Source of the DNA: Escherichia phage YDC107_1
Sequence record: CP025712.1
Strand: one strand, 5' to 3'
DNA length: 46,701 nt
Shown here: piece by piece, positions 1,805 to 32,290 of the stretch
Layout of the letters: every line of letters starts with the position of its first letter
Position numbering within the stretch: the stretch's first letter is position 1
Translations under genes and position numbers: made by a program
Notes under the pieces: model-generated
The model's database searches: none
What the model saw: only the letters and a program-made list of their open reading frames with translations
Told to the model about the DNA's origin: nothing

Positions 1805-1864
1805 TCGTCATGCTCCATAAACGATAAAACCGCCCGGAGGCGGTTTCACATAAAACATTTTGCA

Positions 1865-3177: not shown

Positions 3178-3182
3178 GGGAT

Positions 3183-3881
3183 TTACTGCGAAAGTTTGTT
3201 AATGGAAAGGAAGCCGCCAAAGTTGCCGACGTTATTGCGGAACTTACAACCGCTCAGGCATTTGCTGCATTTATCCTTCGTGATATCGGACGTTGGCTGG
3301 TCATATTCATCCGCGACTGCCGGACCGTGATAACCGCACTCATCACCGCGATAGGTCCAGGTGCAGGTGTTGGCCAGCATGATACGTCCCGGAAAAACGG
3401 CACCGTCCGTTTCCGTCGGCGTGGACAGTACAAAAGAGGCACTCACCGCGCTCAGTTCGCTGCACTGCTCAATGCGCCAGCGGCTGATCACCTCCTGCTC
3501 CGGATCGGCGCCACTGTTTCCGTTGACGAAGTTCACCGCATCCAGAAAACGGGCGTAAACCTTACGCCGGACCACCGTTCCACCGACCAGACTCTGCAGA
3601 TCTTCCGCCATCCCGGTGACCATACCGTACAGGTTAGAAACCGTCAGTGTGGGGCGCGTACTGGTGCCTTTGCCATTCAGTTCAAAACCACTCCCCTGAA
3701 TGGGATACGGCTGATACTGTCGCCCCTGCCAGGTGACCGGCTCACCTTTTTCGTTCTGCTCATTACAGAAAAAATAACGTTCTCCACCGACCTCTGTCAG
3801 GTCGATTTCCCAGAGCACCACGCTGGCCGACTGCTCCGCACGGGTGCATTCATTCAGTGTTTCCTGCCGGATATCCTGCAT
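3183..3881 (-). CDS. L: Tail tip protein L
   Basis: 232 aa, collinear with lambda L; stop overlaps M. Confidence 0.9.
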   Translation of the reverse strand: MQDIRQETLNECTRAEQSASVVLWEIDLTEVGGERYFFCNEQNEKGEPVTWQGRQYQPYPIQGSGFELNGKGTSTRPTLTVSNLYGMVTGMAEDLQSLVGGTVVRRKVYARFLDAVNFVNGNSGADPEQEVISRWRIEQCSELSAVSASFVLSTPTETDGAVFPGRIMLANTCTWTYRGDECGYHGPAVADEYDQPTSDITKDKCSKCLSGCKFRNNVGNFGGFLSINKLSQ

Positions 3882-4210
3882 CAGTTCACCACCTGTTCAA
3901 ACTCTGCGCTGAACTCAACACGCAGCATACTGACCCGCGACGACCATTTTGCGCAGGTCACCTTTATCTGCCGCCACTCATAAGGCGGCGTCCACAGAAA
4001 GGCTTTCCAGCCCCCGTGCTCAGCCAGAAACGACTCCAGCGCCGTGGCCTCCCAACGGGGAACAGAAAGCGTCACGCTGTACGTTTTCAGGTCGGCATTC
4101 AGCCCGGCAGGCGCTCGCTGGGAATAGCCATCACCAAAGCGCACCTTTCTTACAGAAGGGGCCGAAGCCACATCCATACCGGGTTTCACTTTCCAGCGGA
4201 AGGTTTTCAT
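3881..4210 (-). CDS. M: Tail tip assembly protein M
   Basis: 109 aa, MKTFRWKVKPGMDV…, lambda M position between H and L. Confidence 0.9.
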   Translation of the reverse strand: MKTFRWKVKPGMDVASAPSVRKVRFGDGYSQRAPAGLNADLKTYSVTLSVPRWEATALESFLAEHGGWKAFLWTPPYEWRQIKVTCAKWSSRVSMLRVEFSAEFEQVVN

Positions 4211-6786
4211 CGTCCACCTCCGGAGAACAGGCCACCATCACGCATCTGTGTCTGAATTTCATCACGGGCACCCTTGCGGGCCATGTCATACACTGCCTTC
4301 ATCATCTGTGGACCTGGCAGACCATTCGTACCGTCGTTCTGAATCACCACGTTGTTGTTCTGCTCAAACCTGATACCCTCTGAACGCCGCATTTGCGCCG
4401 GACTTCCGGTGCCACCGACATAACCGCCGGTGGCATAGCCGCGCATCAGCCGGTAGAGATTTCCCACGCCAATCCGGCTGGTTGCCTCCTTCGTGAAGAC
4501 AAATTCACCACGGTGAACAATCCCCGCTGGCTCATATTTGCCGCCGGTTCCCGTAAATCCTCCGGTTGCAAAATGGAATTTCGCCGCAGCGGCCTGAATG
4601 GCTGTACCGCCTGACGCGGATGCGCCGCCACCAACAGCCCCGCCAATGGCGCTGCCGATACTCCCGACAATCCCCACCATTGCCTGCTTAAGCAGAATTT
4701 CTGTCATCATGGACAGCACGGAGCGGGTGAAGCTGCGCCAGTTCTGCTCACTGCCGGTCAGCATCGCCGCCATATTCTGTGCAATACCATCAAAGGTCTG
4801 CGTGGCTGCACTTTTTACCTGCGACATACTGTCCGTGGCGCTCTCTTCCCACTCACTCCAGCCGGACTTCAGGCCTGCCATCCAGCTCCCGCGAAGCTGG
4901 TCTTCAGCCGCCCAGGTCTTTTTCTGCTCTGACATGACGTTATTCAGCGCCAGCGGATTATCGCCATACTGTTCCTTCAGGCGCTGTTCCGTGGCTTCCC
5001 GTTCTGCCTGCCGGTCAGTCAGCCCCCGGCTTTTCGCATCAATGGCGGCCCGTTTTGCCCGTTGCTGCTGTGCGAATTTATCCGCCTGCTGCGCCAGCGC
5101 GTTCAGGCGCTCCTGATACGTAACCTTGTCGCCAAGTGCAGCCAGCTGGCGTTTGTACTCCATCGTCTCATCTTTATGCGCCAGCAGGGATTTCTCCTGT
5201 GCGGACAGCTGGCGACGTTGTGCCGCCTCCTCCAGTACCGCGAACTGACTTTCTGCCTTCCACAAATCCCGGCGCTGCTGGCTGATTTTCTCATTTGCTC
5301 CGGCATGCTTCTCCAGCGTCCGGAGTTCAGCCTGAAGCGTCAGCAGGGCAGCATGAGCACTGTCTTCCTGACGATCGCCCGCAGACACCTTCACGCCGGA
5401 CTGTTTCGGCTTTTTCAGCGTCGCTTCATAATCCTTTTTCGCCGCCGCCATCAGCGTGTTGTAATCCGCCTGCAGGATTTTCCCGTCTTTCAGTGCCTTA
5501 TTCAGTTCTTCCTGACGGGCGGTATATTTCTCCAGCGGCGTCTGCAGGCGTTCGTAAGCCTTCTGCGCCTCTTCGGTATATTTCAGCCGTGATGCCTCAG
5601 ACTCGACCCAGTCCTTTGCTGCCATCTCTCTGGCCTTTTCAAGATCGGCCTGCAACGTGGCGGCTGAAAGCCCAAGTTGCGCATTCGCTCTGTCCTCCCA
5701 TGCTCCCCGGAGATTGGCAAGAAATGCTGAGGTTTTACCGCGCCGGTGGCTCCGGCTCTGATACCACTGCCATTTTTTGTCCGCCTCATCAAAAGCCTTT
5801 TCTGCTTTCTCCAGCATTCCCTGGGCAGTGTCCGGGCGACCAATATCCAGCACCGAATCCCACATGGATTTGAATGCCCGTGCTGTCCTGTCTGCCCAGG
5901 TCTCCAGCGTGCCCATGTTCTCTTTCAGGCGGCGGGTCTGGTCATCAAACCCTTTCGTTGCGGCCTCGTTCGCCGCCTGCAATGCCCCGGCTTCATCTCC
6001 GGAACGCTGCAACTGAGCAACATACGCAATCTGCTCCGCCGTCACGTTATGGAACTGACGTGCCATCGCTGTCAGTCCCGACGTCGGGTCTGTGGTCAGC
6101 TTCCCGAAGGCTTCAGCGACCTTGTCCACCTCCACGCCGGATGCAGAGGAGAAACGCGCCACACTCTGGCTGATCGCCTCAAACTGCTCACCACCACGCA
6201 CACCTGCATTCACCAGCGCCGTCAGTGACTCGCTGGTCTGGTTAAACGTCAGCCCTGCCGCCTGCCCGGCTCTGGACAGGACCAGCATACGATCTGCCGT
6301 CAGTCCCGCCTGATTGCCGGAAAGGACCAGCGTTTTGTTGAAATCGGACAGGGTTGAGTCCCCCTGATACCAGGCATACGCCAGCGCACCGGTCGCCACC
6401 GCCAGCGAGGTGGCCCCGACCATCGGCAGGGTGATCGCACCGGCAAGCCCCCTGAACATGGGGATCATCCCGCCGAAGGAGTCCTTAACCTGACCACCCT
6501 GTTGCAGCAGGATCAGCCACGGACTTTGCCCGCCTGCAAGCTGCGTGGCCACGTCGGTGAACTGTGCAGGCAGCATACGCATGGCAGCTTTATACTGCCC
6601 GACGGAAATCCCCGCTTTCTGTGCAGCCAGTGCCTGTCGGCTCAGCGACTGTTCAACGACTGCCGCTGTTTTTTTCGCATCACTTTCCGTACCGGAAAAA
6701 TGACGCCTGACTCTGGCCATCTGCTCGTCAAATCTGGCCGCATCCAGACTCAAATCAACGACCAGATCGCCTACCGGTTCAGCCAT
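4207..6786 (-). CDS. H: Tail tape measure protein H
   Basis: 859 aa, lambda H-like along its length, Ala/Gln-rich coiled-coil middle, Gly-rich C-terminus. Confidence 0.92.
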   Translation of the reverse strand: MAEPVGDLVVDLSLDAARFDEQMARVRRHFSGTESDAKKTAAVVEQSLSRQALAAQKAGISVGQYKAAMRMLPAQFTDVATQLAGGQSPWLILLQQGGQVKDSFGGMIPMFRGLAGAITLPMVGATSLAVATGALAYAWYQGDSTLSDFNKTLVLSGNQAGLTADRMLVLSRAGQAAGLTFNQTSESLTALVNAGVRGGEQFEAISQSVARFSSASGVEVDKVAEAFGKLTTDPTSGLTAMARQFHNVTAEQIAYVAQLQRSGDEAGALQAANEAATKGFDDQTRRLKENMGTLETWADRTARAFKSMWDSVLDIGRPDTAQGMLEKAEKAFDEADKKWQWYQSRSHRRGKTSAFLANLRGAWEDRANAQLGLSAATLQADLEKAREMAAKDWVESEASRLKYTEEAQKAYERLQTPLEKYTARQEELNKALKDGKILQADYNTLMAAAKKDYEATLKKPKQSGVKVSAGDRQEDSAHAALLTLQAELRTLEKHAGANEKISQQRRDLWKAESQFAVLEEAAQRRQLSAQEKSLLAHKDETMEYKRQLAALGDKVTYQERLNALAQQADKFAQQQRAKRAAIDAKSRGLTDRQAEREATEQRLKEQYGDNPLALNNVMSEQKKTWAAEDQLRGSWMAGLKSGWSEWEESATDSMSQVKSAATQTFDGIAQNMAAMLTGSEQNWRSFTRSVLSMMTEILLKQAMVGIVGSIGSAIGGAVGGGASASGGTAIQAAAAKFHFATGGFTGTGGKYEPAGIVHRGEFVFTKEATSRIGVGNLYRLMRGYATGGYVGGTGSPAQMRRSEGIRFEQNNNVVIQNDGTNGLPGPQMMKAVYDMARKGARDEIQTQMRDGGLFSGGGR

Positions 6787-7608
6787 ACCGGACTCCTCCT
6801 GCGATCCCTTCTGATACTGTCATCAGCATTACGTCATCCTCCGTCATGTCCGCCACATCCGGGGAAGCGGGGATAACTTCATTCCCGTCCGGGCCAAAAC
6901 GAACGCCTCCGGCAAGCCCTGCCGCTTTCTGCATCAGCACATCATCTTCAGGCTCTTCGTCAGCCTCGCGCCGGTTCAGCAGACTGAAATCCAGCGGATG
7001 CATCTCCGGATCGCTGAAAAACAGGCTGAGCACGGTGTACGTCAGCCCGGAAAAGTGCATATCCAGCAGAACATCATGAAAATAATGGGTACTGTAAAAG
7101 CGGTGCCAGTCGGCATACTCCGTGGATGACATCCCGGCAAGCATGGCGCGCCAGTCGGGTCGCCCCATCTCACGCGCCAGTTTCAGGGCAAAACTCAGCT
7201 CACCGTCGAACACTTTCCCGCAGAAACAGGCTCTGCAGGCCCGGCGTCCTCTGCCTGTTCAGGAGCATTATTCACCACAAACTCATACATACCGGACAGC
7301 CGGTACACCACGTTTTCAGCATGAGAAATTGCCTCTGTGGGCCAGGTGGTAAGCACTTCCTGCTCAATCTGTTTAACGGCTTCATTCATGGAAGGCAGCT
7401 TTGTCTTCTTCGGATGGTTATGCCACAGGGACATCGCCACCAGAAACGCGCCGGTTCTGATGGCGTCTTCCACAGTAAACTTCCGGTTGCTGTCGGATTC
7501 TGCCTGCTGTTTCATCAGAGCGAGATGCTCAATACGCTGCAGGGCTGACAGTTCAGAAAGCGTGACGGTCACGCCGTTATATTCAAATGATTCGGTTTTC
7601 AGGAACAT
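6779..7608 (-). CDS. GT: Tail assembly chaperone GT, made by programmed -1 frameshift from G into the T frame
   Basis: T-frame ORF 6779..7213 overlaps the G 3' end; slippery heptamer GGGAAAG on the minus strand at 7213-7219. Confidence 0.8.
7195..7608 (-). CDS. G: Tail assembly chaperone G
   Basis: 137 aa lambda G-like; ends just past the slippery site. Confidence 0.9.
   Translation of the reverse strand: MFLKTESFEYNGVTVTLSELSALQRIEHLALMKQQAESDSNRKFTVEDAIRTGAFLVAMSLWHNHPKKTKLPSMNEAVKQIEQEVLTTWPTEAISHAENVVYRLSGMYEFVVNNAPEQAEDAGPAEPVSAGKCSTVS
7213..7219 (-). promoter_or_regulatory. Slippery heptanucleotide G GGA AAG for the G/GT -1 ribosomal frameshift
   Basis: Plus-strand CTTTCCC at 7213-7219 is GGGAAAG on the coding strand, inside the last G codons. 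Confidence 0.7.
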
Positions 7609-7623
7609 CGCTGACTCTCCGGA

Positions 7624-8364
7624 TTAACTGGCGGTGACGGTGATTTCTGCAACCGCAGCAAACTCACCATTACCGGATACGACCGGAATGTTGACCTTGC
7701 CTGCAGCAACGCCGTTCACGGTGATGGTCATACCACTGACCGACACGGTGGCTTTTGTTTTATCCGAAGACACCGCACGGAAGCTCTTGTCGGTTACGCC
7801 TTCCGGCTGGAAGGCCACGGTCAGCGTGGTGCTCTGTCCTTTCACTACGGACGCACTGGCTGGCGTTACCGTCATGCCGGTTGCCGCCGTCACCGTACTG
7901 CGATCTTCAGCCATCGACGGGCGTCCCACATTGGTGACCTTCACCGTGCGGGTGATCACTTCCTTCGCCGTCACCGCTTTACCGATACTGCTGACCCAGC
8001 CACGGAACACATCGACCGTGCCGTTAGGAAAGCGGATTTTATAGGCACGGGTATCACCTTCATTAAACCACGCCAGCAGCGCCTGCTGCCCCTGCTCTCC
8101 GGGCATCCACGCCAGCGTGAAGCTGGTATCTCCGGCAGATTTCTGCCCCTGCCCGGTCGCAGTCCAGTCCGCATCTTCATCATCGAGATAGCTGTCGTCA
8201 TAGGACTCAGCGGTCAGTTCGCCGGGCGTCAGGTCTTTAACTTTTGCCAGACGCGACCAGTCAACGTCTGAAAGCGGGTTCGCATAAGGGTCACCGTTCC
8301 CCTTATAAACCCACAGTGTGGTCCCGGCACCTTTCACCGGCATTGTTGGATTTGGTACAGGCAT
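7624..8364 (-). CDS. V: Major tail tube protein V
   Basis: Lambda V-like from [16 protein letters not shown] (246 aa); the ORF-track start at 8394 is an upstream in-frame Met; C-terminal Ig-like domain. Confidence 0.9.
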
Positions 8365-8371
8365 AGCGTCC

Positions 8372-8767
8372 TCACATTTCATAGGTAATGACATAAGTCA
8401 GATCGGCTGAACTCCACAGGCCCGCATCATCGTCGCGCCGGTAGTCATAGCCACTGGCCACCATACTGGTGATCAAATCTGACAGTGCCGGGATATCGCT
8501 CATCACCGGATAAATCCGGGACTCCATCCACGAATCCAGCTCTGAATCCGGCACCTGAGCAGGCAGGAAAACTTCAATATGCAGCTCCGCCTGCCAGGTA
8601 TCGCTGTCCAGCTCTTCGCCCGTGTATTCAGCGCCGGTGAGATAAACGGCAATTGCCGGAAAATCTTCCTCATCAAAAACAGCGGGGCGACCATCAAAAA
8701 GCGTCGCCCCGGTGTCATGCTTCTCCAGTGCATCCAGTACGGCTGCACGGAGTTCAGTATGTTTCAT
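8372..8767 (-). CDS. U: Tail terminator protein U
   Basis: 131 aa, lambda U-like, 7-bp gap to V. Confidence 0.9.
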
Positions 8768-9342
8768 CGCTTTATTACCATTCTCAGTTGATGCTGCAGC
8801 GCATAGCCCAGCTCTTTCGGAAGACGCTCACGCCGTATCCGCTCAATATTCTGTTTAAACGCCGTGGTCAGCGGCACCGCCATCGGGATTTTCACCACAT
8901 CAATGGGGTAACGGTTTTTCCCGGCCACACGCTGCATGACATGCCACCGGCCATTTTTCAGTTGCTGAATAAACGCGCCGGGAATACGACGGTTACCCAC
9001 CACAAGCACGCTGCCGCCACCTTTCAGGGATGAACGCTGCCCTTTTTTACGACGCCTGCGGCGGGACAGGACAACCCGCGCATTACCCAGCTTGATTACG
9101 GGCAAATCCCCCCGGTTAACTTTGATTCTGGCCTGCGGATTTTTGACCGTGGCCCTTTTCAGCCTGGCCCTTTCCTTTACCAGTTTCCGGCGTACCTTTG
9201 TCTCACGGGCAACCTGTGACGCCGACTGCGATATCGCGGATGAAGCAACGCGGTTAATGGCCATTGCGGCGGCACCAGGCACCGCCGTTTTGCTGATACG
9301 GCTGAGGTTTTCAACGGCCTGCTCAAGACCTTTTATGGCCAT
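8764..9342 (-). CDS. Z: Tail completion protein Z
   Basis: 192 aa lambda Z-like; 4-bp overlap with U. Confidence 0.9.
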   Translation of the reverse strand: MAIKGLEQAVENLSRISKTAVPGAAAMAINRVASSAISQSASQVARETKVRRKLVKERARLKRATVKNPQARIKVNRGDLPVIKLGNARVVLSRRRRRKKGQRSSLKGGGSVLVVGNRRIPGAFIQQLKNGRWHVMQRVAGKNRYPIDVVKIPMAVPLTTAFKQNIERIRRERLPKELGYALQHQLRMVIKR

Positions 9343-9353
9343 ACATCCCCCTT

Positions 9354-9707
9354 TCAGCGACGACGGTTAACGGCAGGCGGCACACCACGCCCAAGCCAGA
9401 GATGACAACTTCCGCCATCATCCGGCGAAATCCGGTCTATCCAGAAGTTTTCCTCACCGATGGTCAGCGTGTCGCCGCGCCGCAGCTGCCGCACATCATC
9501 AGTCCGGACAAACAGGGACGGGCTGGAGCCTTCAACGCGCACGCCCTGTCCGGCATAGCTGATATTTTCAGGGTCATCAAAAACACCACGTATCACCGCA
9601 CCGGACTGCTCACCGGATGTCATGGTGGCTGACGTTCCCATGTACCCGCGTATTGTTTCATCGGCGCGGGCAATGGCAGCATCGAACAGGTTATCGAAAT
9701 CAGCCAC
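9354..9707 (-). CDS. FII: Head-tail joining protein FII
   Basis: 117 aa lambda FII-like. Confidence 0.9.
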   Translation of the reverse strand: MADFDNLFDAAIARADETIRGYMGTSATMTSGEQSGAVIRGVFDDPENISYAGQGVRVEGSSPSLFVRTDDVRQLRRGDTLTIGEENFWIDRISPDDGGSCHLWLGRGVPPAVNRRR

Positions 9708-9718
9708 AGCGCCTCCCG

Positions 9719-10117
9719 TTATTGCATTCTGGCCAGGCCACGTTCTGTCATTTCGGCTGCCACACCGGCAGAGACACGGAACGCCGTTCCCGGCAGCACA
9801 AATGCCACAGGTTCATCCCGCGTGGCGTGAAGTGCATCGGTATGCAGCGTCACCAGTGCCACTACCGTGACCAGTTCAGCCGTATCATGAATCACGGTAT
9901 CCGGCTGCGCTGATACCACCTCATTTTCATGCCCGGTCAGCACATTTTCCGGGCTGAGAGATGTGTCCTGACCGGCAGCGTCATCCGTGTCATCAAGCTC
10001 CTCTTCCAGCTCTGCCACACGGAGTGCCAGTTCTTCTTTCGTCCCCGTCAGGCTGACATCACGGTTCAGTTGCTCACCCAGCACCTGAAGACGGGCAATC
10101 AGTTCATCTTTCGTCAT
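9719..10117 (-). CDS. FI: DNA packaging protein FI
   Basis: Lambda FI-like from MTKDELIARLQ (132 aa); ORF-track start at 10156 is an upstream in-frame codon. Confidence 0.85.
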   Translation of the reverse strand: MTKDELIARLQVLGEQLNRDVSLTGTKEELALRVAELEEELDDTDDAAGQDTSLSPENVLTGHENEVVSAQPDTVIHDTAELVTVVALVTLHTDALHATRDEPVAFVLPGTAFRVSAGVAAEMTERGLARMQ

Positions 10118-10158
10118 GGACTCCTCCACAGAGAGAAAATGGCCCCGAAGGGCCATGA

Positions 10159-11184
10159 TTACGCCAGTTGTACAGACACGAATTCATCAGGGTCAGCCAG
10201 CAGCATCAGCGGTGCTGACTGAATCATAGTGAACTCACGCGCCGGATCGCCGGTGGTCACCCAGTTTTTCGGGTAACGGGCAGAGGCGTTAATGCCTTCG
10301 CGCTGTGCGTCCGCATCCTGAATGCAGCCATAGGTGCGCAGACCGCGTGCCTGAGTGTTCCCCAGCACCATCGTGTTGTCCGGCAGGAAGTTCTTTTTGA
10401 TGCCGTTTTCCACGTACTGTCCGGAATACACGACGATGGCCACATCGCCATACATTCCCTTATAGGACACCGCTTTGCCCAGGTCTTTCACCGCTGTCTC
10501 CAGCTCGGAATGAGAGCCGCGACGGGTATCCAGCTTATCCTTGACGGCCTTGAAGGAACGGAACAGCGCCCAGCCTTTCGGATCAAACACGATGATATTC
10601 ACCACACCGCTGGCGTTCAGCGCGTAGGCTTCGATATCGTCGGTCGGGTCATACGTGGACTTGTCACGCTGGCTCCACTGCGTGCCGCCGGACTGCGTGA
10701 TGTTATTCGCCGCACTGCGGCCCATATCCACTTCAACCGGATCGAAGGCTTCACCGGTCATGGTGTATTTGCCCTTAAGCACGGCAGAAACGGCCTGCAT
10801 CTCTTCGACCTGGGCAATGGCCAGCTCTTCATCACGCATGTTCTGCATGATGATGCGACGGCGGCGGTAAGCCGGGTCCGCCAGATTCTGCGGATCTTCA
10901 TCCGGCAGGCGACGCAGGGTCATCTGCGGATTCACCTCATGCTTGGGTTTGACATATCCCGGCGTAAATTCAGAGGTGGAGCCGCCACGGGAACGGATAA
11001 CCTCACCGGAAACAATCGGCGAAACGTACAGCGCCATGTTTACCAGTCCCGGAATTTGTGAGAGATAGACTTTCTCCGTGGTGAAGGGATAGCTCTCACG
11101 GAAAAAGAGACGCAGAAACAGCGGATCAAACTTAAATTTCTGCTCATTTGCCGCCAGCAGCTGGGCGGTTGTGTACATCGACAT
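10159..11184 (-). CDS. E: Major capsid protein E
   Basis: Lambda E-like from MSMYTTAQLLAANEQKF (341 aa). Confidence 0.92.
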   Translation of the reverse strand: MSMYTTAQLLAANEQKFKFDPLFLRLFFRESYPFTTEKVYLSQIPGLVNMALYVSPIVSGEVIRSRGGSTSEFTPGYVKPKHEVNPQMTLRRLPDEDPQNLADPAYRRRRIIMQNMRDEELAIAQVEEMQAVSAVLKGKYTMTGEAFDPVEVDMGRSAANNITQSGGTQWSQRDKSTYDPTDDIEAYALNASGVVNIIVFDPKGWALFRSFKAVKDKLDTRRGSHSELETAVKDLGKAVSYKGMYGDVAIVVYSGQYVENGIKKNFLPDNTMVLGNTQARGLRTYGCIQDADAQREGINASARYPKNWVTTGDPAREFTMIQSAPLMLLADPDEFVSVQLA

Positions 11185-11239
11185 AAAAAAATCCCGTAAA
11201 AAAAGCCGCACAGGCGGCCTTTAGTGATGAAGGGTCAGG

Positions 11240-11572
11240 TTAAACGATGCTGATTGCCGTTCCGGCAAACGCGGTCCGTTTTTTCGTCTCATCGCTGGCA
11301 GCCTCCGGCCAGAGCACATCCTCATAACGGAACGTGCCGGACTTGTAGAACGTCAGCGTGGTGCTGGTCTGGTCAGCAGCAACCGCAAGAATGCCAACGG
11401 CAGCACCGTCGGTGGTGCCATCCCACGCAACCAGCTTACGGGTGGAGGTGTCCAGCATCAGCGGGGTCATTGCAGGCGCTTTCGCACTCAATCCGCCGGG
11501 CGCGGTTGCGGTATGAGCCGGGTCACTGTTGCCCAGCGGCTGGTAATGGGTAAAGGTTTCTTTGCTCGTCAT
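11240..11572 (-). CDS. D: Head decoration protein D
   Basis: Lambda D-like from [12 protein letters not shown] (110 aa). Confidence 0.9.
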
Positions 11573-11581
11573 AAACATCCC

Positions 11582-12187
11582 TTACACTGGTGTATTCAGC
11601 AAATCGTTAACGGCATCAGATGCCGGGTTACCTGCAGCCAGCGGTGCCGGTGCACCCTGCATCAGACGATCCAGCGCAGTATCACTGCGCGCCTGTGCAC
11701 TCTGTGGTGCTGCGGCCAGAATGCGGCGGGCCGTTTCCACGGTCATTCCGGGGGTTTCTGCCAGAACGCGCGCCTGTTCTTCGCGTCCGTGAGCCTCATC
11801 ACAGTTGAGGATCCCCATAATGCGGCTGTTTTCTGCCGCAACCGCTGCGGTGATCTGCGCGTTCACGTCCGGCTGCGCCGCGCTGGCGTTTTCGCCCTCC
11901 GTCGCTTGCACCACGTCAGTAACGTCAGCCTGCGAAGCGGTGGCTGAAACAGTTGTTGATTGAGTCTCTTTGGTCATTCGCCCTCCTGAGAGACGGGATT
12001 TACGTGCATCCAGTGCATCACGCATGACGGTGATCGCATCGGTGCTGTTAACAAGTTCATCAGCCAGTCCGGCATCAATGGCCTCCTGACCGCTGTACAC
12101 TGCAGCCTCGGTATCCAGCACAGTCTGCACGGACAGGCCGGTATATGCCGACACCTTCTGCGCAAACATCTGGCGGGTTGCATCCAT
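11582..12187 (-). CDS. nu3: Scaffolding protein Nu3 (in-frame internal start within C)
   Basis: Internal Met MDATRQMFAQ gives the 201-aa C-terminal product, as for lambda Nu3. Confidence 0.7.
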   Translation of the reverse strand: MDATRQMFAQKVSAYTGLSVQTVLDTEAAVYSGQEAIDAGLADELVNSTDAITVMRDALDARKSRLSGGRMTKETQSTTVSATASQADVTDVVQATEGENASAAQPDVNAQITAAVAAENSRIMGILNCDEAHGREEQARVLAETPGMTVETARRILAAAPQSAQARSDTALDRLMQGAPAPLAAGNPASDAVNDLLNTPV

Positions 12188-12881
12188 CCGGGACTGCAGT
12201 GTCTCCCGGACGTCATCCGGAAGATGGCTGTAGGGGTTGCCATCCACCTTATGGCTGCCGCTGTAAATCAGCGTGATTTCCACGCCCTGTTTCTCCAGCG
12301 CAGCACCGTAATTACTGTGAGCCATCATGACGCCGATGGAGCCTGTCCGGGCGGTCTGCGTGACCAGACGCCGGGAGGCGGCGCTGGCAAGCAGCTGACC
12401 TGCACTGCAGTTCATGTCGTTGGCCAGCGCCCATACAGGTTTTATGTCACGCACGCGGGCGATGATGTCAGCGCAGTCAAATGCCCCCGCCACCATCCCG
12501 CCGGGCGTGTCCATATCGAGCAGAATGCCGTCCACCATCGGGTCGCTGGCAGCCTGTTGCAGACGGGCGATAATGCCGTTGTAACCGGTCATCCCCGAAT
12601 ACGGCTGCAGCGCCCGCGTCCGGCTGACCAGCGTGCCGGAAACCGGCAGCACGGCGATGCCGTTCATGACCTGATAACTGCGGGCCTGTCGTGGTCCGTC
12701 ATCATCACCGGATAACGCCAGCGTCGCGGGTGCCTCCGGGGCAGTCAGGCTGTCACCGGACACCGCATCTGTCAGGCGGCTGATCCCAAGCTGGCCTGCA
12801 AGCGCACAAAAGAAAACCCGCGCATAGGCGGGTTCAAGCATCAGCGGCTCATTAAAGGCCATGCTGGCAATATGCGGGAGA

Positions 12882-12901
<20 letters not shown>
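11582..12901 (-). CDS. C: Capsid assembly protease C
   Basis: Lambda C-like from a GTG start (V)TAELRNLPHIASMAF, 439 aa; ClpP/S49-like fold. Confidence 0.88.
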
Positions 12902-16582
<3,681 letters not shown>

Positions 16583-16608
<26 letters not shown>

Positions 16609-17128
16609 TCAGCAACCCCGGTATCAGTTCATCCAGCGCGGCTGCTTTGTTCATGGCTTTGATGATATCCCGTTTCAGGAAATCAATGTGCCGGTTATCC
16701 AGCTCAGGAAAACGTCGCTGCACCGACAGAGGAATACCGTCGAGAATACTGGATATTTCCCTTGCTATACGCGACAGCACGAAAGTACAGAATGCGGTTT
16801 CCACCACTTCAGCCGATTCTTTGGCATTTTTCAGTTCCTGCGCCGTCGCCTGAGCACGAGTCAGGCGATGGCGCTCAAATTCAAGTGTTCCGGGGTGAAG
16901 ATCTGCCTCGCTGGCCAGCCGTAATTCTTCAACCTCCCGGCGCAGCTTTTCGTTCTCAATTTCAGCATCCCTTTCGGCATACCATTTTATGACGGCGGCA
17001 GAGTCATAAAGCACCTCATTACCCTTGCCACCGCCTCGCAGAACGGGCATTCCCTGCTCCTGCCAGTTCTGAATGGTACGGATACTCGCACCGAAAATGT
17101 CAGCCAGCTGCTTTTTGTTGACTTCCAT
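16583..17128 (-). CDS. nu1: Terminase small subunit Nu1
   Basis: 181 aa lambda Nu1-like with N-terminal HTH (MEVNKKQLADIFGASIRTIQNWQEQGMPV); 26-bp overlap with A. Confidence 0.9.
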
Positions 17129-17312
17129 TGTTCATTCCACGGACAAAAACAGAGAAAGGAAACGACAGAGGCCAAAAGGCCTGTTTTCAGCACCTGTCGT
17201 TTCCTTTCTTTTCAGGGGGTGTTTTAAATAAAAACATTAAGTTACGGAGAAGAAGAACGGAAACGCCTTAAACCGGAAAATTTTCATAAATAGCGAAAAC
17301 CCGCGCGCCTTC
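17129..17312 (-). other. cos site (cosB upstream of Nu1 plus cosN)
   Basis: Reverse complement of 17129-17290 matches the lambda left-end cosB sequence as I recall it. Cohesive-end equivalent at 17296-17307 reads GGGCGGAAGGCG on the minus strand versus lambda GGGCGGCGACCT. Confidence 0.75.
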
Positions 17313-17390
17313 CGCCCCGTAGCCTGCCGGATCGCCGGAAAGGACCCGCAAAGGTGAGAATAATTATCACTTGCATTAATATCCAGCTTC

Positions 17391-17559
17391 TTCCACCATC
17401 GCACCGGACGGGCGACTATGAGGGACAAAACCGCGCACCATAAACGCGGTAAAAACCCGGTGTGCATCGTTTTTGATTATTTCCGCACACTCGCGCAGAA
17501 GGAATTCCCCGTCGGGCTACGGTCATGGTTAATGCGGAAATACGGCGACGATGCAGCGC
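17391..17559. repeat. Direct repeat copy A (about 169 bp), partner at 18341..18509
   Basis: Shared …CATGAGGGACAAA…CGGTAAAAACCCGGTGTGCATCGTTTTTGATTATTTCCGCACACTCGCGCAGA…TTCCCCGTCGGGCTACGGTCATGGTTAATGCGGAAATACGGCGACGATGCAGCGC with a few mismatches. Confidence 0.85.
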
Positions 17560-17679
17560 ATGATGTGTCAGGCTTGAATACCTTTATCCGTTAAAAGGGA
17601 TATCAGTTAAGTTATCCCGTGCAGGGTATAAGCCATTATCAAAGCCACTCAGTAGCGAATGGCTTTTGTAATGGACTAT

Positions 17680-18276
17680 TTAATTAGTGATGCTGCGTGG
17701 CTTCATACAAATTTCAGAAATATGATTCTTTTCGTCCAAATGATGCTGGACATCATTTTTATCATCACTCAACAACTCTGCTGTTAATACAATCCCTGCT
17801 GTCTCAGATTTCCAGGAAATGCTGATATCCTGATCATCTGCATCAACATCATATTTTATCGAGTAAGGACTAAAGCTACGTCCAACGAACGCATCATTTA
17901 CCAGTACACGCCCACCCTGTCTGACCTGAAAGTCAACGCGCCCTGAAAGCTGATTTGCTGTTACAAGCAATGCCTTTTTTCTTTTTGTTTTATTGCTCAT
18001 TGCCACCAACTGTTCAGCCATCTCTCTTGTCACACTACCAGAAACTCTTTCTTGAATTTTCACAGAAAATTTTCTGGATGTAGTAGCATCGACATTAAAA
18101 AATCTGGATGTCATCAGGCAGTTATTAACAATTGGCATCAGCTCACTTACGATTGTAAAAAATTCCCGGTAAAGCTCATTTTGCTTTTCAACACACAGCT
18201 TTCCACAATCGTCCAGCTTACGCTCAAGAGCACTTAATCTTTCCATTATTGAATTAATTTTTTGCAACTCTTTCAT
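17680..18276 (-). CDS. Hypothetical protein (AT-rich moron between lysis genes and cos)
   Basis: 198 aa from MKELQKINSIMERLSALERK with a strong SD (GGAGG) upstream. The ORF-track start at 18537 (MRPWSH…) is a GTG inside a palindrome and probably not used. No family recognised. Confidence 0.6.
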   Translation of the reverse strand: MKELQKINSIMERLSALERKLDDCGKLCVEKQNELYREFFTIVSELMPIVNNCLMTSRFFNVDATTSRKFSVKIQERVSGSVTREMAEQLVAMSNKTKRKKALLVTANQLSGRVDFQVRQGGRVLVNDAFVGRSFSPYSIKYDVDADDQDISISWKSETAGIVLTAELLSDDKNDVQHHLDEKNHISEICMKPRSITN

Positions 18277-18299
18277 CAAAACCTCCTGACAAAGATACC

Positions 18300-18317
18300 G
18301 TGCGACCACGGTCGCAC
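18300..18317. repeat. 18-bp palindrome GTGCGACCACGGTCGCAC (candidate SopB-type centromere or protein-binding site), copy 1
   Basis: Perfect palindrome just upstream of the moron gene start. Confidence 0.6.
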
Positions 18318-18340
18318 GCTCCTGAATACATGCCCTGTTT

Positions 18341-18509
18341 CTTCCACCCTCGCACAGGACTGGCGAGCATGAGGGACAAACCCGCGAATCATTAGCGCGG
18401 TAAAAACCCGGTGTGCATCGTTTTTGATTATTTCCGCACACTCGCGCAGAGGAGTTCCCCGTCGGGCTACGGTCATGGTTAATGCGGAAATACGGCGACG
18501 ATGCAGCGC
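18341..18509. repeat. Direct repeat copy B (partner of 17391..17559)
   Basis: See copy A; together they bracket the 17680..18276 gene. Confidence 0.85.
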
Positions 18510-18519
18510 GGTATTTAAT

Positions 18520-18537
18520 GTGCGACCACGGTCGCAC
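18520..18537. repeat. 18-bp palindrome GTGCGACCACGGTCGCAC, copy 2
   Basis: Intergenic, between the DUF4406-like gene and direct repeat B. Confidence 0.6.
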
Positions 18538-26233: not shown

Positions 26234-26876
26234 TTAATAATGCGGTTCGATTTAAGCTCAGACATCGCGACTTAATTAAAAGCCAGCGTTCTTTATAATC
26301 TTGTCTCCAGCTATCAATAGATATATTCAGTAGAAAACTCAGATGCCTGTCCTGTTCTCTCTCATCAACTGCCTCAGCACACGTAAGTTCTGATTTAACC
26401 TGTTGTGCCGCGTAATAAATCAATTTCCGCATGGCTTTTTTCGTGGAGGCCTTCATTTTTTTAAAGCCGCCCCCCGAATGAGCAACCAGAAAATCAAGCC
26501 ATAACCACTGACAAACAATCACATCATTGTTGTAATCAGGCTTGCATCCGTAGCAATAATAAAGCCAGGCTGATTCCTCGTTATTCAACTGACCAATAGC
26601 CCTGCGCCAGCTGGCGCTCTGAAAATCAATATCAGTGAGCAACATTGATGATTGTTTAAATGTTTTCCCCTGATGGAATCTAACCGGCTCAGCAGGAACG
26701 GACACTTCGTATGAGTTATCATCCCCCACACTGATTGACCGGACTGGTTTATTGTTAAACCGTCCTGATCTACCGAGACGCATCTGCTCAAGCTGGACCT
26801 CCAGAATGCCACGCTGGCGATAATGAACATCAGCCAATGCCGTAGAGACGCAGCTGCGTATATACTCAAGCTCCAC
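26166..26876 (-). CDS. Hypothetical early protein directly downstream of cro (regulator or Q-like candidate)
   Basis: 236 aa from a GTG start with SD AAGGAG; contains CYGC…C cysteines; family not recognised. Confidence 0.5.
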   Translation of the reverse strand: MELEYIRSCVSTALADVHYRQRGILEVQLEQMRLGRSGRFNNKPVRSISVGDDNSYEVSVPAEPVRFHQGKTFKQSSMLLTDIDFQSASWRRAIGQLNNEESAWLYYCYGCKPDYNNDVIVCQWLWLDFLVAHSGGGFKKMKASTKKAMRKLIYYAAQQVKSELTCAEAVDEREQDRHLSFLLNISIDSWRQDYKERWLLIKSRCLSLNRTALLNAAEKRSEIIKRHRAGSAILPL

Positions 26877-27087
26877 GCTTACGACTCTCCTTAATCGACT
26901 GCTTTACCCGCCGAGTTGTAAAGTCACTCTTCAGCTTATAAGCAGTACGAACTTCAATATCGCTTTGCCGCAATGAAGGAATCTCTCCAGCGGTTAACCA
27001 TTGGTAAACAGCTCCGGGTGTTACACCTACCCCTGCCGCTGCTTTTTCTACACTGCCAAAATGGCGAATAAGTTCTTCTGGTTTCAT
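26866..27087 (-). CDS. cro: Cro-like HTH repressor
   Basis: 73 aa from MKPEELIRHFGSVEKAAAGVGVTPGAVYQWL; divergent from the repressor gene. Confidence 0.7.
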   Translation of the reverse strand: MKPEELIRHFGSVEKAAAGVGVTPGAVYQWLTAGEIPSLRQSDIEVRTAYKLKSDFTTRRVKQSIKESRKRGA

Positions 27088-27118
27088 GTTGTTATTATAA
27101 ACAATAAACAACAATTAA

Positions 27119-27156
27119 AGCCAGCTATAATAAATAAATTTTATAGCCAGCTATAA
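27119..27156. promoter_or_regulatory. Operator region between cro and cB: two AGCCAGCTATAA repeats
   Basis: Repeats at 27119-27130 and 27145-27156; the second lies in the near-palindrome TTATAGCCAGCTATAA; AT-rich promoter context. Confidence 0.5.
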
Positions 27157-27178
27157 GAAGATCATTTATGATTACAGT

Positions 27179-27775
27179 ATGAAAACACGAGGCGAACGAC
27201 TGAAAGCACGCCGTTTAGAGATGAAGCTGACGTTGCGAGAAGTTGCTGAGGCTGTCGATATCTCTATAGCAGGCGTCCAAAACTTAGAACGTGGCGACGT
27301 AATGCCGTCACTGGAGATAGGTATTGCCCTGGCTAAGTGCTTACGCAAGCCAGTGCATTGGGTGCTATATGGGACAGAATATGACCCTGATCGCATTCCT
27401 GTTATTGGCACAACTGAAAGTGGGCCGGATGAAGAGTGGAAGCCGGGACAGGTTCCAAATACTGAGCGATTCCTGCCATTCATCAGCCAGCGCAATACTG
27501 TGTATGCGTTAACTATCAGCAATCTTACGCAGGGAAACTATCAGCCAGGCGATTTTCTCCTGGTCGATTCTGCGCTGGAACTGGTCCCCGGCGAGGATGT
27601 TCTGGTTCGTGATACTGCAGGAAATATCACTATCCAGCGCCTGGCCCGTTTTGATGATGAAAATTACTATCTGGATGGAACAAACTCACAACGCGCCATC
27701 TTCAGGAAAAGCGATCTTGAATTTGTTCACCAAATAGTCGGAACGATCAAATCATTCATGGTTGAGGGTAGATGA
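27179..27775 (+). CDS. cB: Prophage repressor (N15 CB / lambda CI analogue): HTH plus degenerate LexA-like C-terminal domain
   Basis: 198 aa; N-terminal HTH LTLREVAEAVDISIAGVQNLERG. Confidence 0.8.
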   Translation: MKTRGERLKARRLEMKLTLREVAEAVDISIAGVQNLERGDVMPSLEIGIALAKCLRKPVHWVLYGTEYDPDRIPVIGTTESGPDEEWKPGQVPNTERFLPFISQRNTVYALTISNLTQGNYQPGDFLLVDSALELVPGEDVLVRDTAGNITIQRLARFDDENYYLDGTNSQRAIFRKSDLEFVHQIVGTIKSFMVEGR

Positions 27776-27869
27776 CTTAATACGGGGTTTATTGTTTGCT
27801 GTAAATCTGGTTTAATGCAGGGCATATGTTCTGTGGGTTGACTCAGGTTACAGCAGCAGAAAAAAGACG

Positions 27870-27905
27870 AAAAAAAACCCGAGTCGGCAAACTCGGGTCC
27901 TTTTC
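27870..27905. terminator. Bidirectional rho-independent terminator after the repressor gene
   Basis: A-run, CCCGAGT-CGGCAAA-ACTCGGG, then T-run. Confidence 0.5.
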
Positions 27906-28020
27906 AGGAAGCAGCCACAACAACGCGACAGATTCCGTCAATTCAAGATGCGTTTATTGTGGCTGCTCCTGCGGATTTTTTCAACCCGAAAAAACATAAT
28001 TCGCATGGAATGGCTAAAAA

Positions 28021-31000
28021 ATGACATTAAACGATTTCTATGCGGATCGCTTTGGCAGCGATCCGTTCTCGCTAATTGAAGCAGCACGGGATGAACTAAC
28101 CGAGCTGGCACAGATGGCTGGTATCAACTGGCCTGCCTGTTCCGACAACATCCAACTCAACCCTCGCGGGGGGGTTGAGCGTTACTCTTCATACAATAAA
28201 ACATCTCCAGAAGCTCTCGAAAAGAGCCTGAAAGGACGCGTAGAAATTTACTCCAGGCTGGAACACAGCAAAGGGATTGATTACCCGTTCATTAACTTCG
28301 TCCATAAAGGCAGCGATGCTGGCTCATGGAGCGGTTTCTCCTTCCTGTTTTCTGAATATCGCCGTGAGCAACAACGGAATAATGCGACCGTGGTCGCACA
28401 ACCGGAAGAAGAACGGGAAAGAATAGAACGTCAGGCCGAAGCACGTCGTCGCCGTGAAGAACAAAAACGAATTAATGACCTGAAAAACAACCAAATGGAC
28501 CATGAACGTTTGCTGGGATGGCTGGCATTCCACAGCGCGTGGGAACATGCTCAGGCTGAAGACGGCTCATGGCCATATGCGATTAAAAAAGGTATTCGTG
28601 ACGTTTTTAGTTCATGTGATGTGCGTCGCGTGACCAGTCACGACAGTGCGAAATGGAGCCGGGGGCCAACCACATATATGGCTATCCCTCTGGCTCACCT
28701 GGACGGTCGTTATGATGGTCGTATTGTGGGTTGGCAGCGAATCGACAAACAAGGTGGGAAATACCAGACCAGCGCAGTAACCAGCGGCGATTTCGTCGGT
28801 GCCTGCTTTGTTATCGGTGAGCTGAAAGGGGCGCAAAACATCGCTGTTACAGAAGGTTTTGCTACTGGTGCATCCATCTGGCTTGCCACGAAAAAAGATA
28901 AACGCTTTGACGCGGTGGTTGTCGCTGTATCCGCTAACAACATGGTTCATGTTGTGGAACAACTGGTAAACATGTACCCGGCGGCAAAAATCACCTGCGC
29001 ACTGGATAATGACCGGAAATCTGCCACAGAAGGAAAAGGGAATACCGGCCTGCGGACTGGCTATGAAATCTTATCGAAATTCAACGATGTCCGCTGCGTC
29101 TACCCAACTTTTGAAGACGATCCGCAAATGGAGTGCAGTGACTTCAACGACCTGCACAAACTACGTGGACTTCGTGAAACAGCACGTCAACTATTTGCAA
29201 CAGCAAACCGCCTGAAAACCGGCACTGATTTGCTATCTCTGACGCTCAACCGCCTGAAGACAATTAAGCGGGATAACCGTCGTACTTTTGCCAAAGAGCT
29301 GCTGAGAGCGGTGGATATTGGCATGCTAACCTGTCCGGTTCCTAACAGTCCGTCAGATTTGTTTAACATGTTCTGTATCGTTCTGCGTGAAATGGGGCTG
29401 GAAAATATCTATCGCGCTACGGTAAAAGACCACATTGCCCGTCGCCTGAATAAAAAATGCCGTATTGCCCAGGCTCCGCGCTCTTTCAGCGAACGCATAA
29501 CTGATCCCAATAAACGCCCTCAACATATCACCTATAAGCGTTTTGAAACTTCGGTAATGACCTATGACGTCCTGAAGTACGTGCAATCACTACAGGGGAT
29601 CGTCATCGTTCGTGCTGGTATGGGTTCCGGCAAATCTACTGGATTGTTACGACCGTTAATGCATAGCTCAGAACGCGGTATCTCTGTAGCTCACCGTGTT
29701 TCCCTTATTGGTGGCCTGTGGGAAATGATGACTGAAGGAAAAGGTGTAAAAGCCGATATCCTGCACTATCAGGACCCTGGCTATCAGGAAATGGCTCCAT
29801 ACGCCAGTAAACTGACCATCTGCATAAACTCGATTGTTAAAAACTGCTGGCAACCGTTGATGCGCCAGCACGACTATTTTGGCTTTGACGAGGCCACACA
29901 AGGGCTACGTGCCGTTCTTTCCGGTCGGGCTATGGAAAACCCAGTGGCTGTATTCAATACGCTAATTGACGCGCTGGCCAGAACGGAACAACACCCAATA
30001 ATGGTGGATGCTGATGCGAACGATCTGCTGGTTGACCTGGCTGAACTGGCTATGAAACGCCGTGAAGAACTAGGTTTACCGGCATGGCTGCAGATCCACG
30101 TAATTGAATTACCTGTTGATGTTCGCAACCGCGAAACAGGTGAGCCAATCCGGGTTTTTTATACAGAAAAAGATCGCATCATGACCGAGGTGGTGAAAGC
30201 TGTATCGGATGGCGAAAAAATCATGTTGGCCACCGACAGCTCCACCTTTGCAGAAGATGTGACCGCCACCCTGAGAATGCATTTTCCTGGTAAGAAATTT
30301 CTGTGCGTAAACCAGAAAAGCAAACAGGATGAAGAAGTCGATGCTTTTACCAACCAGCCAAAAGTAATGGTGATGAAATACGATGGACTGATCTACAGCC
30401 CGTCGATTTCCTCCGGGGTGTCATTTGAGAAAAAACATTTTGACCGTCATTTCGGCATGTTCTGCGGTGAAGTTGTGCCCAGCGACGCAGTGCAAATGCT
30501 ACGCCGCGACCGTACAGCAAAAGAATTTATTATCGGCTTTGATAAAGCTCGTGCAAAACGCGAGACTGATCCGCAAAAAATAGAACGTGCATTCGCCCAG
30601 GCATTACTTGCTACCGCAGGCATGAACGGTGAACTGACGGATGTCGTTTTCGATGGCGACCGTATATCAATGGGGGTGGCCAATACCGACTTTACCAGGA
30701 TGAAAATTAAAGCTGCCGCTATTGAAGCGTCTGCGCGTAACGACTACGCCAGCAACATGATCTGCATCATGCACAGCGACGGTTATAAGGTATCGCCATT
30801 AGCTACTGATTATGCCGCAAATGATTTTGGTAAAGAGCTGCGCAAAGAAGCGCGGGATATTGTGTGGGAACAGACGCTGGATCTGCACCTCAATACAGAG
30901 ACACCAGAAGAATCAGAGCGTGAAGAACTACTAAAAAAACGTGCGCTAACGCTTGAAGAACAGGCAAAACTTGTCCGCTGGGATATTGAGAACGAACTGA

Positions 31001-32004
31001 AACTACCGGTTGAAGAAGGCACGCTGAAATTCTATTTCGATGGTGCTCGAGACAAAATTCGCCGTTATGAAACGATGCTGCTTGATGAAGTCACAGCCCG
31101 TCGTTATGACCGTGAAGAAGCGGCTATCAATTTTACATACGCATACCGCCAGACCGGACAGTGGCAATATTTTGTGGTGACCGCGATGACACGCGAGCAG
31201 GCTGATGATGTATTCAAAGCGAAATTTCCGGGAATAATCGACTACAAGGTAAAAGCCACCCCAGCTGTTGAGGTCGGCATGCGCGGATTCTATGCGCTTA
31301 AATCAGCAACTCTCCGGCAGTATTTTATCGACTGCGGTATCGACCCTGAAACTATGACTGGCGAAGCGACGCAGGAACGCCTTAAGTTCGCTCGAGATAA
31401 TCTCATGACAGCAGAACGCCGTGACCTGTTGAATAACGTTCTGCGCATTGGTGGTTTTATGACACCAAAAGGGAAGCCTAAAGTGCCGGAAGCACTGTTT
31501 AAAAACATCTGCGACTCTCTCGGCCTAAAAACAGGAAAACGTCGCGGCAGAGATGGCGATAAGCGCCCGACATTGCGTTTTGTTGAGCCTGAGTCTGTAG
31601 CATTTATGCTTGATATTCTTACGCAACGTCAGGAGGACGGTATGACGTTGAAAGCTCGCAAGGCAGAAAAATCAACGACCGAAGTGGATCGCGATTTGTC
31701 ATTAAATATATATATGAATGGTGAAACGCGATCCACAAACACGGAGGAACAGGATCCCCCTCGTTCAGCTATATCACAGGCTTTGGCTGTATTGCCGGTG
31801 GCTGTTCCTGAGTCCTGGGCGATGAGTGCTCTGCCATCAGCCGAACTGGAATCTATCAGGGGGTGGTCAGTTGACAGCATCGCATACACGTTTGCAGCCC
31901 TTTATATGACTGAGTTTATGGATTTGCTGTCCGGTCATGAGATTAAGTTGCTGAAGGCTTTTATAGGCCCACGACATGCCAGCGATGAGTTTTGTGTAGT
32001 TTAG
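28021..32004 (+). CDS. repA: Replication protein: Toprim primase fused to a helicase/NTPase (N15 RepA / P4 alpha-like)
   Basis: 1327 aa; Toprim motifs (VTEGFATGASIW, ALDNDRKSATEGKG); Walker A GMGSGKST; Walker B-like FDEATQ. Confidence 0.9.
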   Translation: MTLNDFYADRFGSDPFSLIEAARDELTELAQMAGINWPACSDNIQLNPRGGVERYSSYNKTSPEALEKSLKGRVEIYSRLEHSKGIDYPFINFVHKGSDAGSWSGFSFLFSEYRREQQRNNATVVAQPEEERERIERQAEARRRREEQKRINDLKNNQMDHERLLGWLAFHSAWEHAQAEDGSWPYAIKKGIRDVFSSCDVRRVTSHDSAKWSRGPTTYMAIPLAHLDGRYDGRIVGWQRIDKQGGKYQTSAVTSGDFVGACFVIGELKGAQNIAVTEGFATGASIWLATKKDKRFDAVVVAVSANNMVHVVEQLVNMYPAAKITCALDNDRKSATEGKGNTGLRTGYEILSKFNDVRCVYPTFEDDPQMECSDFNDLHKLRGLRETARQLFATANRLKTGTDLLSLTLNRLKTIKRDNRRTFAKELLRAVDIGMLTCPVPNSPSDLFNMFCIVLREMGLENIYRATVKDHIARRLNKKCRIAQAPRSFSERITDPNKRPQHITYKRFETSVMTYDVLKYVQSLQGIVIVRAGMGSGKSTGLLRPLMHSSERGISVAHRVSLIGGLWEMMTEGKGVKADILHYQDPGYQEMAPYASKLTICINSIVKNCWQPLMRQHDYFGFDEATQGLRAVLSGRAMENPVAVFNTLIDALARTEQHPIMVDADANDLLVDLAELAMKRREELGLPAWLQIHVIELPVDVRNRETGEPIRVFYTEKDRIMTEVVKAVSDGEKIMLATDSSTFAEDVTATLRMHFPGKKFLCVNQKSKQDEEVDAFTNQPKVMVMKYDGLIYSPSISSGVSFEKKHFDRHFGMFCGEVVPSDAVQMLRRDRTAKEFIIGFDKARAKRETDPQKIERAFAQALLATAGMNGELTDVVFDGDRISMGVANTDFTRMKIKAAAIEASARNDYASNMICIMHSDGYKVSPLATDYAANDFGKELRKEARDIVWEQTLDLHLNTETPEESEREELLKKRALTLEEQAKLVRWDIENELKLPVEEGTLKFYFDGARDKIRRYETMLLDEVTARRYDREEAAINFTYAYRQTGQWQYFVVTAMTREQADDVFKAKFPGIIDYKVKATPAVEVGMRGFYALKSATLRQYFIDCGIDPETMTGEATQERLKFARDNLMTAERRDLLNNVLRIGGFMTPKGKPKVPEALFKNICDSLGLKTGKRRGRDGDKRPTLRFVEPESVAFMLDILTQRQEDGMTLKARKAEKSTTEVDRDLSLNIYMNGETRSTNTEEQDPPRSAISQALAVLPVAVPESWAMSALPSAELESIRGWSVDSIAYTFAALYMTEFMDLLSGHEIKLLKAFIGPRHASDEFCVV
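28383..28398. repeat. 16-bp core TGCGACCGTGGTCGCA, copy 5, inside repA
   Basis: Outer bases not complementary (16 of 18); mirrored copy at 45080-45097. Confidence 0.5.
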
Positions 32005-32021
32005 AGGGTAGAAGCGTGGGA

Positions 32022-32288: not shown

Positions 32289-32290
32289 AA

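Follow-up and report, generated by a model that had tools for sequence, protein, structure and literature searches.

It was found that a stretch of DNA from Escherichia phage YDC107_1 (CP025712.1; 46,701 nucleotides in full, referred to below as the window) carries a lambda-like cos site whose cohesive-end sequence departs from that of lambda at five positions. The site is very probably the single functional cos (cosQ-cosN-cosB) of a lambda-type packaging module residing on an N15-like telomere phage-plasmid, and its cosN allele would then be a tolerated natural variant. The variant allele is real, recurrent, and ordinary. It adds one more natural allele to a part of the cohesive-end site that is well described and functionally tolerant, and it brings no new specificity or mechanism. 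Its less ordinary aspects are limited to the divergence of 5/12 positions in the company of an essentially lambda terminase and to the apparent clean exchange of a cassette between two near-isogenic genomes.

The minus strand of the window runs ...GGCTACG, then GGGCGGAAGGCG, then CGCGGGTTTTCGC. In lambda orientation the cos region reads CCGGCAGGCTACG GGGCGGAAGGCG CGCGGGTTTTCGCTATTTATG, and the longer reading around the overhang is ...GGGTCCTTTCCGGCGATCCGGCAGGCTACG GGGCGGAAGGCG CGCGGGTTTTCGCTATTTATGAAAATTTTCCGG... At the same position, lambda (NC_001416) and phi80 have GGGCGGCGACCT and N15 has GGGCGGCGTCCG. From this homology, the nicks are predicted at 17318/17317 on the minus strand and at 17306/17305 on the plus strand. 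The mismatches with lambda lie at bp 7, 8, 9, 10, and 12 of the overhang, where the window has AAGG.G and lambda has CGAC.T, while bp 1-6 and bp 11 are unchanged. The preliminary description had stated that the central 12 nt differ from lambda, that the cosB region and the cosN flanks are close to lambda, and that the change is restricted to one half of the overhang. All of this was borne out by alignment to NC_001416, phi80, and N15, the comparison with other cos sites that it had proposed: the five mismatches with lambda (bp 7-10 and 12) all lie in the right half, bp 7-12, and R3, R2, R1, cosQ, and the CG flanks are identical. The lambda cohesive end given there was also correct, as NC_001416 begins GGGCGGCGACCT. 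On the other hand, the range given there (17129-17312) was too short, since its end splits the 12-mer at 17306-17317 and leaves cosQ (17341-17347) outside. The features of the site and the terminase genes are listed in Table 1.

Table 1. Predicted cos elements and terminase genes in the window.
Feature	Coordinates	Strand	Basis or comparison
Large terminase subunit gpA, 641 aa, endonuclease nicking cosN	14683..16608	-	PHROG terminase large subunit
Small terminase subunit Nu1, 181 aa	16583..17128	-	PHROG terminase small subunit, E = 1e-73
cosB R1 CTGTCGTTTCCTTTCT	17153..17168	-	Repeat search; same as lambda
cosB R2 CTGTCGTTTCCTTTCT, inverted relative to R3 and R1	17194..17209	+	Inverted-repeat pairs; same as lambda
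Core of the I1 (putative IHF) site region TAACTTAATGTTT, between R3 and R2	17232..17244	-	Core same as lambda
cosB R3 AGGCGTTTCCGTTCTT, bp 50-65 from the left end	17253..17268	-	Identical to lambda bp 50-65
cosN, 16 bp, CG-GGGCGGAAGGCG-CG with the conserved 2-bp nick flanks counted in	17304..17319	-	CG flanks and bp 1-6 same as lambda
Predicted 12-nt 5' cohesive end GGGCGGAAGGCG	17306..17317	-	Alignment to the sticky ends annotated in lambda, phi80, N15, and DE3
Overhang bp 7-12, the variable right half, AAGGCG (lambda CGACCT)	17306..17311	-	Alignment
cosQ GGGTCCT, packaging-termination element, 24-30 bp upstream of the top-strand nick	17341..17347	-	Same as lambda, invariant in the alignment

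A single match to the cos pattern was found in the window and none in 100 shuffles, and a scan allowing 3 mismatches found no second cos in the window. By direct count, the twofold symmetry of cosN is 8/16 bp in the window and 10/16 in lambda, a trait for which no threshold is defined. The flank pairs and the pair bp 2/11 are kept relative to lambda; the pairs 3/10 and 6/7 are lost, and the pair 4/9 is gained, which leaves a symmetry that is lower than in lambda but not gone. Between the overhang (from bp 13) and the Nu1 start codon, a stretch of 178 nt, 7 substitutions and one 1-nt deletion separate the window from lambda. With a background divergence of about 4%, five mismatches in one 6-nt stretch are expected only about 1e-4 times over the region by my own arithmetic, and thus the change in the overhang is not a matter of uniform drift.

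Around the overhang, everything resembles lambda, including cosQ, the CG flanks, R3/R2/R1, and the I1 core, with the spacing kept within one base. The R sequences form the expected direct and inverted repeat pairs. I take the window cosQ to correspond to lambda bp 48473-48479, and TAACTTAATGTTT is presumed to be the I1 (IHF) core according to the layout of lambda cosB. The traits that mark a lambda-like cos (PMC4669245) were found together: 7/12 overhang positions including all of bp 1-6, both CG flanks, a 7-bp cosQ at the lambda spacing (-30 to -24), a complex cosB with R3 at bp 50-65, an inverted R2, R1, and the I1 core sequence, and adjacent genes for a terS of the Nu1 type and a terL of the gpA type. 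The position of R3 in lambda cosB follows PMC9026076. The simple cosB of the N15 type, with R3 only and a remote rR2 inside terS, is absent from the window, which has the lambda-type R3/I1/R2/R1 arrangement, and the left end of N15 can be aligned to the window only over the first ~40 bp.

Judged from its gene content and its telomere sequence, the element is a telomere phage-plasmid of the N15-like kind that has lambda virion genes and has been read through its hairpin telomere, and it is not an integrated lambda-like prophage. Thus, it differs from lambda, an integrating phage, in that the host element of the cos is a linear plasmid prophage. The traits of an N15-like telomere phage were found in the window, namely a protelomerase gene beside a telRL palindrome and a RepA-type replication protein. 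The protelomerase (633 aa) is 77% identical to N15 TelN and has four Pfam TelK domain matches, and the RepA-like ORF is 1327 aa in length. The 22-bp palindrome CCATTATACGCGCGTATAATGG at 36732-36753 is the core of N15 telRL and is the same as telL/telR annotated at the ends of PhiR46_1. A cI-like repressor gene lies in the lysogeny module (28021-36551), while the virion module spans 311-17128. The region 26776-46701 is a 99.92% inverted repeat of itself with 16 gap openings, centred on the 36732-36753 palindrome. This mirror 20 kb is evidently sequence running through the hairpin telomere and back, and it may stem either from a read-through in long-read assembly or from a replicative dimer joined head to head. 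In the mirror half, telN (37493-38833) and repA (41837-44749 and 44661-45458) are broken ORFs, which suggests indel errors.

The same organisation (protelomerase, RepA, Q, lysis, and lambda virion genes) was found in PhiR46_1 and in ~46-kb E. coli 'plasmids'. PhiR46_1 (PV340565.1), a close relative of the element, has the same cosN allele and is 99.7% identical over a 601-bp cos-spanning query, and pEC21Z151-46K (NZ_CP101200.1, locus L194) has an exact match to a 40-bp cosN query. Elsewhere, these two differ from the window by ~2-5%, and the window adds a ~10-kb mirror copy beyond the telomere palindrome. Along with pEC21Z151-46K, other ~46-kb RefSeq circular plasmids carry the protelomerase, CyRepA1, Q, lysis, and terminase genes and the same cosN allele. 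These circular 'plasmid' records are probably linear telomere prophages recorded as circular. No paper describing PhiR46 or PhiR46_1 was found in the searchable open literature.

A few further traits of the window were seen near the cos and at its start. A direct repeat of ~188 bp (17372-17559 and 18323-18509; 87-98% identical) lies just upstream of cosQ, with the copies 950 bp apart, and brackets a minus-strand gene at 17680-18537 (phrog_2571). The repeat resembles the trace left by a moron insertion or by a duplication. The idea that the copy 950 bp away holds a relic cos was rejected, as that copy ends before cosQ and cosN. Related phages match the cos-spanning query in two pieces over ~892 bp, which points to an insertion or deletion relative to the window. 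An ORF of 58 aa (17418-17594, plus strand), opposite to Nu1 and just upstream of cosQ, lies largely inside the 188-bp repeat; it has no PHROG match and is hypothetical in the PhiR46_1 annotation. The J-like tail-tip ORF at 311-1804 (minus strand) is only 497 aa, and J of PhiR46_1 spans 35350-38829 (~1160 codons). The short J may reflect either a frameshift/indel error or a J whose remainder lies in a different frame or outside the window, past its start.

How common is the variant allele? A 40-mer centred on the variant was found in 155 of 5426 complete E. coli genomes (~3%), at 166 places, and the lambda version of the 40-mer in 4128 of the same 5426 genomes, at 7469 places. Thus, the variant accounts for ~2% of the E. 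coli lambda-type cos sites. It is on plasmid records at 16 of its 166 places, as against 19 of 7469 for the lambda type, a ~40-fold enrichment. In an IMG/VR scan with the 12 overhang positions left free, the lambda 12-mer was present in 117 of 120 among the matches listed. An IMG/VR scan for the GGGCG-NNN-GGCG family yielded 67 contigs, consisting of 51 with GGGCGGAAGGCG, 15 with a sister allele GGGCGTCAGGCG, and a single one (L159) with an intermediate allele GGGCGGCAGGCG. The sister allele, whose contigs include L116, L128, and L131, is also changed at bp 6, in the supposedly constrained left half, and had no match among the deposited phage genomes. Among these 50,697 genomes, the GGGCGGAAGGCG allele was found only in PhiR46_1, whose record names ECOR13 as the host. 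Among the GTDB species representatives, the allele family was found only in one Escherichia sp. genome, and the scan gave no evidence for spread outside Escherichia. In the searchable open papers, the exact 12-mer GGGCGGAAGGCG had no match in a phage context (one unrelated plant paper contains it); a dedicated cos survey, reportedly published by Vahanian et al. in 2017 (Virology 509:140), lies outside that search. These independent occurrences across genomes indicate that the variant 12-mer is real and is not an artefact of this record.

The allele is not tied to its flanks. On the cosB side it is combined with at least three different haplotypes and on the cosQ side with many, and several haplotypes of 60 nt on the left and 100 nt on the right are common to the lambda 12-mer and the variant 12-mer. 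This is seen most clearly in L008 and L181, two near-identical contigs from one metagenome, which have 21 differences in the 7 kb centred on cos. Five of the 21 fall at bp 7, 8, 9, 10, and 12 of the overhang; the closest of the rest lie at -182 and +734. The 12-mer of L008 is that of lambda, and this contig matches the window without a difference for 100 nt left of the overhang and for 178 nt right of it. Since L008 and L181 differ in the overhang's right half while their near flanks are identical, the right half behaves as a small exchangeable cassette, and the pair looks like a cassette swap.

The preliminary description had proposed that the change would alter the specificity of end annealing relative to lambda. 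Only the six shared bp pair in a computed duplex of a variant end with a lambda end, at -9.6 kcal/mol, and so this is a fair reading; according to the calculation, the variant end would not anneal to lambda ends. By contrast, with its own complement the variant overhang reaches -18.6 kcal/mol, against -19.0 for lambda (DNA nearest-neighbour parameters), and the G+C content is 10/12 in both. Both ends of a chromosome are produced from one duplex site and always match each other, and thus the change matters only for heterologous joining or for hybrid chromosomes.

The terminase of the window is almost identical to that of lambda. In Nu1, 170 of 182 positions are identical, and since all 12 differences lie at residues 71-148, residues 1-70 (the DNA-binding region) are identical to lambda. 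In gpA, 637 of 641 residues are identical (99.4%), the differences being N9D, S21A, I459V, and T466I. W, the portal gene, and the remaining lambda head and tail genes follow downstream of gpA. The complete gpA sequences of 63 loci, 38 with a lambda-class and 25 with a variant-class cos site upstream, were compared column by column. No gpA residue is fixed between the two cosN classes, and the polymorphic columns are either shared or private. Each distinct variant-class gpA sequence is 1-5 residues away from some lambda-class gpA, and the four differences of the window gpA from lambda are polymorphisms that occur in both classes. As no residue is fixed by class, the same enzyme evidently serves both cosN types, and a co-adapted endonuclease was rejected on the basis of these 63 loci.

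According to Feiss and colleagues, lambda-like phages commonly differ at bp 7-12 (PMC4669245). N15 and phiD326 differ from lambda at bp 9 and 12, and Gifsy-1 differs at bp 8, 9, and 11 (PMC4669245); mEp213/LLS has the overhang variant GGGCGGCGCGCT (PMC12315714). The window resembles all of these in that the variation is within bp 7-12 while the left half and the nick flanks are conserved. Mutations in cosN's right half have a minimal effect on cleavage, whereas those in the left half are severe; G2C cuts the yield ~tenfold, and the symmetric C11G is without effect (PMC4669245). This asymmetry has been attributed to the anchoring of TerL by the contact of TerS with R3 (PMC4669245). Since variation in the right half is documented as common and tolerated, the site in the window is less unusual than the wording of the preliminary description implied. 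The window differs from N15 and the others in having five changes, more than the 2-3 in the published natural variants examined, and therefore tolerance of all five by a lambda-type terminase is an extrapolation. It also differs in having a complex, lambda-type cosB, that of N15 being simple. The N15 TerL is 64.9% identical to the lambda TerL (PMC4669245), unlike the nearly identical enzyme of the window. The lambda and N15 terminases showed no cosN specificity in tests (PMC4669245).

A mechanism can be proposed along these lines. Nu1, with the N-terminal 70 residues of lambda, would bind R3, R2, and R1 and anchor gpA, which would nick the two strands 12 bp apart at the conserved CG...CG flanks and leave the 5' overhang GGGCGGAAGGCG predicted by homology. 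The bp 7-12 half, which is proximal to cosB, would not be closely read by the terminase, the positioning being achieved via the contact between TerS and R3. The altered bases may be tolerated because the nicking of the bottom strand would be placed by cosB and not read from the sequence. The allele is maintained as a discrete one, with unchanged GC content and duplex stability, and circulates among the lambdoid prophages and phage-plasmids of E. coli independently of its flanks. One likely reason is that one parent would supply the left end of a packaged single-crossover recombinant and the other parent the right end. The cos would thereby become a recombination junction, and the mismatched 12-bp heteroduplex would segregate both alleles after replication, which would explain how the 12-mer moves between backgrounds. 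It is known that chromosomes with mismatched ends cyclise, at a ~fourfold cost in yield for a 2-nt mismatch, and give progeny of both alleles (PMC4669245). Under such a model, a swap between identical flanks, as in L008/L181, would need two successive exchanges or a short conversion patch.

Could the five bases have been copied from a nearby sequence? The variant bases can pair with CCTTTCCG beside cosQ, but a templated origin from this quasi-palindrome was rejected. With the same flanks, the single-strand folds of the variant, lambda, and sister sequences are no different from shuffles (z = -0.31, 0.30, and 0.20, respectively), and such an origin also misfits the sister allele GGGCGTCAGGCG.

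Other readings of the site have to be weighed against a tolerated natural allele. There is practically no chance that the five changes arose as errors in the sequencing or assembly of this record. The record does have indels in the style of long reads between its mirror halves (the 16 gap openings) and a read-through of the hairpin, but the changes in the overhang are substitutions and not homopolymer indels, the 155 complete E. coli genomes have the identical 40-mer, and the 12-mer recurs in the 51 IMG/VR contigs, in the one GTDB Escherichia genome, and in PhiR46_1. It is extremely unlikely that the variant cosN is matched by a terminase of altered endonuclease specificity, with the allele marking a distinct packaging specificity. 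In favour of it, the five clustered substitutions lower the symmetry of cosN from 10/16 to 8/16 bp, and the allele is kept unchanged in many genomes. Nevertheless, the four residues that separate gpA from that of lambda are all polymorphic in both classes, no residue is fixed in the comparison of 38 with 25 loci, Nu1 residues 1-70 are those of lambda, and published tests found no cosN specificity for the lambda and N15 terminases (PMC4669245). It is very unlikely, too, that the site is not the cut point, being either a relic in an element with another packaging route or a site with shifted nicks that give a different overhang. The ends in the window are placed by homology, and the lifestyle module (protelomerase and RepA) is not that of lambda. 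Against this, the window has kept cosQ, both nick flanks, the spacing of R3, and Nu1 and A genes that are intact, and it has no second cos. Moreover, N15 has the same lifestyle and makes use of such a cos, its 12-nt ends being annotated, and the record of PhiR46_1, a carrier of the same cos, presents it as a phage and names its host.

The remaining readings concern selection on the overhang. The allele may have been positively selected as a cohesive-end incompatibility group, penalising recombinants or end-joining with co-hosted lambda-type phages, but this is improbable and no observation calls for it. It would fit with the cross-duplex with lambda ends keeping only 6 bp, with the ~fourfold cost in yield of a mismatch of just 2 nt (PMC4669245), with the discreteness of the alleles, which have few intermediates, and with the enrichment on phage-plasmid records (16/166 against 19/7469 places). 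However, the allele is found on many flank backgrounds, the same ones also carrying lambda-type alleles, and thus exchange is not prevented. According to the published view, bp 7-12 are simply not under selection (PMC4669245), and the discreteness is explained equally well by ancient haplotypes and mosaic recombination. A broader and still rather unlikely idea is that the right-half cosN alleles define cohesive-end compatibility groups among co-resident lambdoid phages, with the overhang as a hybrid-incompatibility locus in the form of a 6-bp cassette, whose swapping is suggested by L008/L181. If this is true, the 5/12 mismatch could leave most lambda-type x variant-type recombinants unable to cyclise.

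As a tolerated natural allele, the variant has a practical value that is modest. It gives correct predicted termini for the PhiR46_1-like phage-plasmids and for ~3% of the complete E. coli genomes, in which the site is currently unannotated. Probes for cos ends, cos ligation assays, cos mapping, and other tools that rely on the lambda overhang will fail on these phages. For the biology of the lambdoid phages, the allele is a more divergent natural test case (5/12) for the published view that the terminase ignores bp 7-12, and the near-isogenic L008 and L181 may be a natural example of the cohesive-end allele segregation that was shown experimentally for lambda/N15 hybrids.
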